IMG/VR virus record: IMGVR_UViG_2609460125_000010
DNA from: a virus
Taxonomy: Duplodnaviria > Heunggongvirae > Uroviricota > Caudoviricetes
Reading direction: 5' to 3' (one strand)
DNA length: 43,924 nt
Shown here: positions 5,638 through 6,090 of the stretch, piece by piece
Layout: every line of letters begins with the position of its first letter
How positions within the stretch are numbered: position 1 is the stretch's first letter
Program-made: the position numbers and the translations under genes
The notes under the pieces: model-generated
What the model saw: the letters and a program-made list of their open reading frames with translations, nothing else
Told to the model about the DNA's origin: nothing
Database searches by the model: none

Positions 5638-6090
5638 TTTGTTCTCCACGTATATGCGCTGCACCGCGCTGAATTCGGGTAAAAGGAAGCCCTCACCGTC
5701 CGGCGATTATTGAGTCAATTACATTTCCATAAATGCCCCCGTAGGGGCGGTTAGTTTCTCCACAAAACAGAGAAGAACACCTGCGGTGGCAGCCGCTCGG
5801 ATGGATTGGGTTATGAGCCCGTCGTCCGGTGATGCTCTTCTCTGTTTTGTAAAAAGGACGGTACCAGCCGGAAGCAATGGTACAAACTGGTACCGCCAGG
5901 ACTACACACAGCATAAAGTTGTGGTGCCGGGTGCCTCCCGGTGCCTGGCGAAGGTTGCACACCAGACGGGTGGGTATCCACAGAAGGTCGACTGTCAGCC
6001 TCAACCTTAACCCGCGTGCGCTGAGCCGCATTCACCACTTCAGGCTCGGTGGTATCTTGGTGTTTTCATATAGCCAAGAAGGAAATAGTT

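Follow-up and report, generated by a model that had tools for sequence, protein, structure and literature searches.

The window analyzed here is a 43,924-nt stretch of viral DNA (IMG/VR record IMGVR_UViG_2609460125_000010; Caudoviricetes) that, judged by its sequence, is an SfII-like prophage of Shigella or Escherichia coli. Positions 6038-5851 of its minus strand carry a structured RNA element that lies ahead of the first early-left genes. The region was constrained as RNA structure and not as protein-coding sequence, and the minus-strand RNA is very probably of the STnc100/PasD kind. It appears to be a new early-operon variant of that kind, whose function we infer. Our preferred reading, to which we give a probability of roughly 0.6 as a whole, is that the leader of the operon transcribed from the leftward early promoter (PL) contains a small RNA (sRNA) cassette released by termination at position 5851. 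The region would then form a non-coding stretch in the leader of the early-left operon, in a prophage of the SfII/SfV/e14/ST64B type, with one complete and one truncated cassette.

Three RNA modules were distinguished on the minus (early-left) strand: a core (6038-5918), a linker with a terminator (5917-5851), and a group of hairpins (5855-5735). Their features, with helices numbered from P1 to P5 in the core, were as follows.

6032-6053, minus strand: small hairpin ACCACCGAGCCUGAAGUGGUGA, the 3' half of which (GTGGTGAA) is one copy of an 8-bp direct repeat
5918-6038, minus strand: structured STnc100/PasD-like core, identified by an Rfam match, covariation and 116 bits in our own covariance model
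6038-6033 with 5926-5921, minus strand: P1, GUGGUG with CACCAC (9 bp in intact relatives)
6032-6030, minus strand: AAU linker
6029-6014, minus strand: P2 hairpin
6013-6010 with 5971-5968, minus strand: P3, GGGU with ACCC
5967-5943, minus strand: P4 hairpin
6008-6002 with 5957-5951, minus strand: pseudoknot between AAGGUUG, just 3' of the P3 5' strand, and the P4 loop CAACCUU
5941-5927, minus strand: P5, CCGGG-AGGCA-CCCGG
5917-5898, minus strand: single-stranded linker and putative seed UUUAUGCUGUGUGUAGUCCU, directly 5' of the terminator
Between core and terminator, minus strand: short single-stranded segment GCUGUGUGUAGUC, the middle part of the complete cassette (6038-5851)
5851-5897, minus strand: Rho-independent terminator with a 13-bp stem (GGCGGUACCAGUU / GGCUGGUACCGUC, G-U pairs included) followed by UUUUU
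5756-5855, minus strand: hairpin with a 25-bp stem (H-module), the base of which includes the terminator U-tract
5822-5804, minus strand: conserved apical motif of the H-module, ACGGGCUCAUAACCCAAUC
5796-5783, minus strand: small hairpin of the H-module, GCGG-CUGCCA-CCGC
5763-5754 and 5748-5735, minus strand: GUGGAGAAAC and the GC hairpin GCCCC-UACG-GGGGC

The initial annotation had centered on an inverted repeat, a GC hairpin and clustered repeats within a GC-rich island. All three were present, at offsets of 1 to 4 bases. The perfect 15-nt arms were located at 5762-5776 and 5836-5850 (reported as 5763-5777 and 5838-5852) and extended to 25-nt arms (5762-5786 and 5826-5850) with 84% complementarity; the GC hairpin gcccccgtaggggc was located at 5735-5748 (reported as 5737-5752); and the island had 52-56% GC, against 38-47% in its flanks. 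The GGTACC repeats (5860 and 5889) were the arms of a 9-nt perfect inverted repeat (5859-5867 and 5887-5895), which is the stem of the minus-strand intrinsic terminator. Repeats of the CCGGTGCC type (5923-5948) were also found, but they correspond to the P5 hairpin and the P1 3' strand of the core. The placing of the region in the path of leftward early transcription was borne out, in that a non-coding structured RNA lies there. The emphasis on the 15-nt repeat was not: this repeat belongs to the third module only, and the main element, the pseudoknotted core of approximately 120 nt (6038-5918), had been recorded merely as clustered repeats.

Folding energies were lower than those of shuffled sequences. 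The 401-nt minus strand folded at -159.6 kcal/mol, against -130.4 ± 6.0 kcal/mol for the shuffles (z = -4.9; 0 of 100 equal), and the long hairpin alone reached z = -6.5 (0 of 200 equal).

Homologous loci were collected by a pattern scan of IMG/VR anchored on two conserved blocks, which gave at least 120 loci with 44 distinct cores of at least 7 subtypes; a single scan of species-representative genomes added cores from Pantoea, Buttiauxella, Lelliottia, and Pseudescherichia. Covariance across homologues, proposed in the initial annotation as a check, was found throughout: all helices were kept by compensatory changes in at least 9 subtypes (Escherichia, Salmonella, Cronobacter, Pantoea, Buttiauxella, and Lelliottia), and the internal sequences of the IMG/VR cores were unrelated, with core lengths of 107-120 nt. 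A plain MAFFT alignment analyzed with RNAalifold recovered P1, P2, and P5 and no others, because the variable stems misalign. For P3, P4, and the pseudoknot, variable regions were folded singly and extracted with the helices as anchors; all three were then present in every subtype, with the following variants.

P1: GUUG(U/C)GGUG with CACC(A/G)CA(A/G)C
P3: GGGU/ACCC, GGAA/UUCC, GGGG/CCCC, GAC/GUC, GAUGA/UCAUC
P4: GUCUGG/CCAGGC, GCUCUG/CAGAGC, GAUCGC/GCGAUC, GCUCAC/GUGAGC, GGCGUU/AACGUC
Pseudoknot: AAGGUUG:CAACCUU, AGACUGACAAA:UUUGUCAGUCU, UGGUUAU:AUAACCA, AAGGCUGG:UCAGCCUU, CAGUUA:UAACUG

In the helix-anchored alignment, 95.9% of cells paired, compared with 40-50% when the partners were slid by 1-3 columns; the former percentage is inflated because alignment segments were chosen by pairing. 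Compensatory (two-sided) changes occurred at 17 of 30 pairs, and at all 6 pairs of the pseudoknot; none of 500 shuffles matched the observed covariation score. P5 and the inner pairs of P1 were fixed by the search pattern and are evidence neither for nor against the fold. The pseudoknot had been proposed from the viral set, and the genome set then supplied a new solution, GGCAAA:UUUGCC (Buttiauxella); a further one, CAGCGA:UUGCUG (Lelliottia), was read by eye, as the script over-extended P4. Loop-shuffle tests of the pseudoknot were weak when taken singly (P = 0.003-0.8) and gave P = 1.5e-5 when combined. Read on the opposite strand, approximately 25 G-U cells of the covarying helices would become A-C mismatches, which places the RNA on the minus strand.

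From these core sequences we built a family covariance model of our own. The copy in the window scored 116 bits (as a member of the training set), and the copy in the e14 prophage of E. coli K-12, which lay outside the training set, scored 110 bits. A divergent variant in phage mEp460 scored 25.7 bits, and extra tandem copies were found in several phages. No second core copy was found in the window. One weak match to the model in the tail-gene region (31427-31528, plus strand; 15.2 bits, E = 0.06) is most likely due to chance.

Among described RNAs, the closest resemblance was to STnc100 (RF02076). At a relaxed threshold, the Rfam scan matched the minus strand from 6071 to 5848 over all 206 model positions (E = 5e-5); this full-length match scored 34.2 bits, below the gathering score of 47 bits. 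The intact copy of phage SfII scored 39.5 bits, that of Cronobacter phage phiES15 scored 40.6 bits, and that of ST64B, with the core only, scored 35.1 bits. At the curated threshold, a tRNA was the sole match in the whole window. The element shares with STnc100 two exact blocks (UGGUGAAU and CACCGGGAGGCACCCGGCACCA), the order P1, P2 hairpin, variable stems, P5, linker, and terminator, and the elements of the consensus, namely a GGUG/CACC closing stem around hairpins, the CCGGGAGGCACCCGG hairpin, a linker, and a terminator, with helices that covary. Both are prophage-borne and occur in multiple copies in E. coli and Salmonella. The two differ in P2 (UGCG/CGCA instead of CCCCC/GGGGG) and in linker and seed. 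They also differ in position: canonical STnc100 is found in the late region, with Q and stx upstream of it and the lysis genes downstream, whereas the element and all its homologues occupy the early-left leader by the immunity region. Unlike STnc100, it is absent from Rfam-based pipeline annotation. STnc100 copies are expressed and overlap Hfq-bound sRNAs in enterohemorrhagic E. coli (EcOnc27/sRNA103), and STnc100 has recently been proposed to share ancestry with PasD1 and PasD2, two sRNAs of enteropathogenic E. coli. The latter are validated by Northern blot, Hfq-dependent, provided with targets by RIL-seq, and homologous to EcOnc13 of enterohemorrhagic E. coli.

The fold was common to the element and PasD1. 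PasD1 (173 nt, extracted from E2348/69) starts 2 nt before AUGGUGAAU and has the P2 hairpin CCUCC/GGAGG. Its 5' domain, like that of the element, is closed by a P1 of the GGUG/CACC type, followed by AAU and the P2 hairpin; a pseudoknot (AAUGAUC:GAUCAUU) joins the strand after P2 to the loop of the last long hairpin; the GGGAGGC motif is present; and a short U/G-rich seed stands directly before the terminator (UGUGAG in PasD1, UGUGUAG in the element). The 3' module of the element was thus of the PasD type, with a seed-like stretch at 5917-5898, a 13-bp stem, and UUUUU. PasD1 differs in having a sigma-70-like promoter of its own at P1 (TTGACT-17-TTATTA); no comparable promoter was found upstream of the cores of the window, SfII, or e14 by a consensus scan that also missed the putative PL. 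It also differs in lacking the H-module, the upstream hairpin P0 described below and the 3' half of P5, in its tail of eight U, in its late-region position, and in having been validated experimentally, the element being known here from sequence.

The seed region resembled a host sRNA. The 14 nt UGCUGUGUGUAGUC (5913-5900), which occupy the position of the PasD seed (UGUGAG) ahead of the terminator, were identical to the consensus of the 3' part of RprA. In phiES15 (L004 2569-2469, minus strand), the 3' module (AUUGCUGUGUGUAGUCUUU and a GCCCG... terminator) came close to identity with the 3' half of RprA, an Hfq sRNA of the core genome, and aligned to RprA positions ~58-108 with 41 bits (cut-off 70). 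The likeness ends at the 3' module: the 5' part of RprA, with its hdeD-pairing seed in a stem-loop ~31 nt from the 5' end, is absent, and the window had no match to the RprA model. At the level of sequence, the likeness suggests an exchange of modules between host sRNA and phage RNA, or mimicry. In four subtypes, a motif of the GUGUAGUC type was kept just 5' of four unrelated terminator hairpins. No cis target of the seed was found within the window at three or fewer mismatches.

The hairpin module downstream of the terminator has counterparts elsewhere. Intact relatives have an extra hairpin (P0) upstream of P1, the arms of which covary (AGAGCAUU/AAUGCUCU, GCUAAGUAUU/GAAUCCUUAGC, GAAGCGCAUU/AAUGCGCUUC, and AUAAGAGUU/AACUCUUAU). 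In some phages (L015 and L049), P0 is a long hairpin with the apical motif of the H-module, followed directly by ...GUUGUGGUGAAU, the start of the core. The segment GUGGAGAAAC and the GC hairpin of the window resemble the P1 5' strand and the P2 hairpin of the core; the SfV sequence of this GC hairpin (5748-5735) differs and its pairing is retained. Because H/P0, GUGGAGAAAC, and the P2-like hairpin follow the order of a core start, positions 5855-5735 are probably the truncated start of a second cassette, cut at a mosaic joint with yfdR. In mEp460-like and Stx2c phages, the terminator and H-module (~94% identity) stand behind a different core and seed.

Phages with several cores were also observed. 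These have 2-3 copies, in tandem or at both ends of the locus, each after an H/P0 hairpin and often a terminator. L015 has two core copies (261-378 and 577-689, both minus strand), and L049, L060, and L091 have a further core ~330 nt upstream of the main core. The divergent core of mEp460 (L005 2811-2671, minus strand) keeps P1 and P2, has a different interior without CCGGGAGGCACCCGG, and is followed by the seed AGCCACUGCUUU and the same terminator and H-module; Rfam was silent there even at E ≤ 10.

The structured region lies ~650 nt into the leftward early transcript, counted from the putative PL, and in all homologues the element lies between a cI-type repressor and the first early-left genes. 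Upon loss of the repressor, polymerase starting at PL would pass through the small open reading frame (ORF) orf68 and the core, a step proposed because of this layout and the SOS co-induction of the K-12 homologue. Most transcripts would stop at the terminator (5851) and yield a structured RNA made up of the core and a 3' module of seed, hairpin, and U-tail; this 3' module has the usual design of Hfq-dependent sRNAs. By homology with PasD, for which RIL-seq and Northern blots have shown this, the released RNA would pair in trans with host or phage mRNAs. Transcripts that read through would fold the 25-bp hairpin, a likely processing site, and continue into yfdR...xis-int, so that the cassette would also throttle early-left gene expression. 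Cleavage by RNase III at this hairpin is likely by analogy with the processing of lambda PL transcripts and of DicF.

Published expression data concern the K-12 homologue, which is annotated as ymfH in the e14 prophage. Its RNA is induced by DNA damage along with ymfJ, xisE, and intE, with LexA cleavage required, and it belongs to the YmfT iModulon with the e14 early genes; Reg-Seq gave a ymfH start site with gentamicin only, in one of two replicates. This induction pattern is what transcription from PL would give, and it implies that the terminator is read through to some extent. No prior description of the RNA was found in the literature on ymfH or e14 sRNAs.

Of the three identities offered by the initial annotation, the sRNA was supported by the sub-threshold full-length STnc100 match and the PasD1 architecture, and the terminator complex in part, by the 13-bp-stem intrinsic terminator (5897-5851); the put-like antitermination element had no support from sequence or structure, as judged from HK022 putL and putR by eye and from the silence of the covariance model on the HK022 locus.

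Apart from the inflated pairing percentage given above, several observations weigh against a released sRNA of this family. None of the copies scored reached the gathering score of STnc100 (34-41 against 47 bits). PasD1 was not detected by our sequence-weighted model, so that the tie to validated sRNAs consists of architecture and short exact blocks. The U-tail has five U, which is short for strong termination and for Hfq binding. The copy in the window has suffered a deletion that removes the P0 hairpin and three pairs of P1 (the GUU extension). The cores of L049, L047, L060, L085, L092, and L132 run straight into a ribosome-binding site and an ORF without a terminator; the core is therefore also a 5' untranslated region (UTR) element, with a role beyond that of an sRNA body. 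Finally, GGUGAAU and GGGAGGC are conserved to an extreme degree, which points to a specific macromolecular partner that the sRNA model leaves unexplained.

Some of these observations would be expected of a leader acting in cis, an alternative that we consider unlikely. There, the pseudoknotted core would act on the polymerase or on its own transcript, as a put-like antiterminator, an attenuator, or a riboswitch; it would set transcription past the adjacent terminator into yfdR...xis-int, and the short RNA would be a by-product. Every homologue has the element where putL or nutL would be, after PL and ahead of the first early-left genes, and no N gene was recognizable in the stretch examined. 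In e14, xisE and intE lie downstream of a strong terminator and are nevertheless SOS-induced, and therefore read-through must occur. The core also occurs in tandem, as well as in UTRs without a terminator. A combination of invariant single-stranded motifs and variable peripheral stems is typical of an RNA that binds a fixed partner. The H/P0 stem and P1 have sequence in common (GUUGUG, in the 3' strand of the former and the 5' strand of the latter), which makes the two pairings mutually exclusive.

Other results oppose such a cis function. In ST64B and in the L015, L136, and L142 types, a terminator precedes the core, and therefore it cannot be the core that lets polymerase through all of the leader terminators. 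The relatives PasD and STnc100 are found in the late region, where some have a promoter of their own, and their behavior is that of Hfq sRNAs acting in trans. By eye, no pairing between core and terminator was consistent across subtypes in the manner of an expression platform. One candidate riboswitch-style antiterminator, the P4 3' arm CGCCAGG with the terminator 5' arm CCUGGCG, was rejected since the pairing is absent in the phiES15, ST64B, and L119 types. A candidate boxA/nut site, the UGCUCUU-like sequence upstream of P1, was likewise rejected: as part of the covarying P0 helix, whose 3' strand it forms, it would be paired, and it is too variable.

The put RNA itself (~70 nt, two stem-loops, and a triplex) is also structured and also belongs to the early leader of a lambdoid phage, where putL lies just after PL. 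HK022 needs no protein antiterminator, and the window has no recognizable N gene. The element differs in lying ~650 nt from the putative PL and in showing, by eye, no convincing correspondence of sequence or helices. The only resemblance to putL and putR found by eye, CGGGUU.AGG.UGA, was at the level of chance, and our model had no match at the HK022 locus; identity with put was rejected.

We hold it to be quite unlikely, in a broader form of the idea, that the P1-P5 core shared by the early-left element, PasD, and STnc100 is a distinct class of functional RNA domain and not an sRNA scaffold. Its fixed cellular partner would be RNA polymerase, a small ligand, or, through the invariant GGGAGGC, the 30S subunit, and the seeds would be a secondary, exchangeable add-on. 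Prophage operons would be controlled in cis, with the domain serving, for instance, as an antiterminator that needs no protein or as a switch that gates xis/int and the lysis genes.

An sRNA cassette that is functional in the family could also have become an inactive relic in this particular copy. Positions 5665-6091 were 100% identical to phage SfII, apart from a single 61-bp indel. Compared with SfII, SfV, and e14, the window has lost 61 bp between two 8-bp GTGGTGAA repeats (junction at 6031-6038; SfII L002 3381-3441). The junction was found neither in SfII nor in any of the full-length matches listed among complete E. coli genomes, and the 100%-coverage matches listed and SfII all aligned in two pieces. 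Real slippage or recombination, or an assembly artifact, could account for it. The copy may be weakened by the deletion, which takes away P0 and the GUU of P1; in addition, a G-to-A change in the window and in SfII weakens the inner H stem. Complete loss of function is nonetheless improbable. Six base pairs of P1 remain; no difference from SfII exists in P2-P5, in the pseudoknot, in the seed, or in the terminator; PasD1 works without any P0; and the family model, of whose training set this copy is part, still gives it 116 bits.

A protein gene, or its decayed remnant, is highly improbable. Several annotations would support one. The 112-amino-acid (aa) ORF at 5693-6031 on the minus strand, which qualifies the earlier statement that there is no convincing coding frame, is intact in the window and annotated as SfII_35 in phage SfII; ymfH is annotated over homologous DNA in K-12, in another mix of frames; and PGAP calls a "frameshifted hypothetical protein" at the homologous site of another strain. 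In addition, a plus-strand ORF (5786-6010) matched phrog_3651 (E = 6e-49), and a minus-strand ORF (5719-5877) matched phrog_33599. However, the earlier statement held in substance, in that no frame was conserved. Substitutions in the 112-aa ORF were evenly distributed over the three codon positions (23/19/19 compared with e14 and 24/28/24 compared with ST64B), with no third-position excess in any frame and thus no codon periodicity. Comparison of the window, e14, and ST64B revealed 1-nt indels and stop codons in this frame, YmfH being a composite of two frames, and core lengths (107-120 nt) differed by non-multiples of 3. No Pfam family matched the ORFs of the region. The PHROG families lie on both strands of the same DNA, as expected from conserved non-coding sequence, and divergence preserves base pairs instead. 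Coding on either strand was rejected on these grounds. As judged from sequence, SfII_35, YmfH, phrog_3651, and phrog_33599 are gene-caller artifacts over a conserved RNA, and ymfH is probably not a protein gene. In the e14 copy (L009, K-12-like, 2995-3123, plus strand, under ymfH), the otherwise invariant P5 motif GGGAGGCACCCGG was changed to GGGGGCACCCGA, which is consistent with decay in a defective prophage.

An element acting at the DNA level (a protein-binding palindrome, a recombination or mosaic joint, or a replication-related repeat) is scarcely credible: the long inverted repeat is palindromic in DNA also and BLAST module boundaries fall at ~5737, 5898, and 6038, where phage mosaics switch, but the G-U pairs and compensatory changes indicate selection on RNA pairing of one strand, and the pseudoknot and multi-helix junction have no rationale in DNA.

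The sRNA cassette may also be compared with DicF, encoded in the dicB operon of the Qin prophage. Both are small RNAs in a repressor-controlled operon of the early-left type, end at an intrinsic terminator, and are separated from the immunity region upstream by a few small ORFs. DicF itself derives from a longer transcript of the operon. It differs in its length of 53 nt and in having no structured 5' core. By eye, the terminator 5' arm GGCGGUACCAGUUUGUAC resembles GGCGGUAUCAGUUUUAC of DicF. Membership of the DicF family (RF00039) was rejected, the match at 5910-5856 (15.6 bits, E = 7.1, against 48 bits required) being noise.

The element is widespread. Among 5,426 complete E. coli genomes, 2,769 had a match to the core and terminator, and in 1,831 of these the coverage was at least 80%. 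Carriers include the K-12 e14 prophage, Shigella serotype-converting phages, and Salmonella ST64B, and the element is usually annotated as a hypothetical protein (YmfH in K-12). Its identity as an RNA removes the spurious hypothetical proteins YmfH, SfII_35, phrog_3651, and phrog_33599, extends the STnc100/PasD family from the late region to an immunity-proximal early operon, and gives the family a testable tertiary structure in the covarying pseudoknot. With the RprA-identical 3' stretch, induced prophages may bring RprA-like pairing into host Hfq networks, and the layout of terminator and hairpin bears on xis/int expression in phages without N.

The surrounding map of the window was as follows.

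2963-3035, plus strand: tRNA (71.8 bits) adjoining the integrase gene, presumably the attachment-site tRNA
3053-4216, minus strand: int
4093-4527, minus strand: xis
Between xis and the YfdR-like gene: two small ORFs
5101-5664, minus strand: YfdR-like HD 5'-deoxynucleotidase
6091-6282, plus strand: orf63 (phrog_2605)
6244-6450, minus strand: orf68 (phrog_15476)
6695-6745, minus strand: putative PL and operators, read by eye just downstream of the cI terminator, with the homologous ST64B leader compared
6700-6695 and 6723-6718, minus strand: -10 (TATCTT) and -35 (TTGCAT) of the putative PL, by eye
6745-6731 and 6723-6709, minus strand: putative PL operators TTGCATATATCGCAA and TTGCATATCTCGCAA, by eye
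6780-6763, minus strand: cI terminator
6800-7492, minus strand: cI
7590-7850, plus strand: cro

A consensus promoter scan found no promoter and missed the putative PL as well, and was therefore uninformative here. No reverse transcriptase, which the initial annotation had proposed to look for, was found among the neighbor genes scanned, no systematic search for retrons having been made.

The small ORFs orf63 (plus strand) and orf68 (minus strand) are conserved and convergent, with a 39-bp overlap. The first, immediately upstream of the RNA core, is encoded antisense to the PL transcript; a candidate plus-strand promoter (TTCACC-16-TATCTT, ~6031-6058) overlaps the deletion junction. The second is the first ORF past the putative PL, in the position of lambda N, and has an arginine-rich start (MTARRPREEK); its sole match was phrog_15476 (function unknown). 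In ST64B, the position of orf68 is without any ORF. Between PL and the element, ST64B has ~300 nt of GC-rich, ORF-free sequence (L003 ~3170-2880, minus strand) with an extra terminator-like hairpin (CUGGCGG...CCGCCAGCUUUUU), possibly a further leader RNA.

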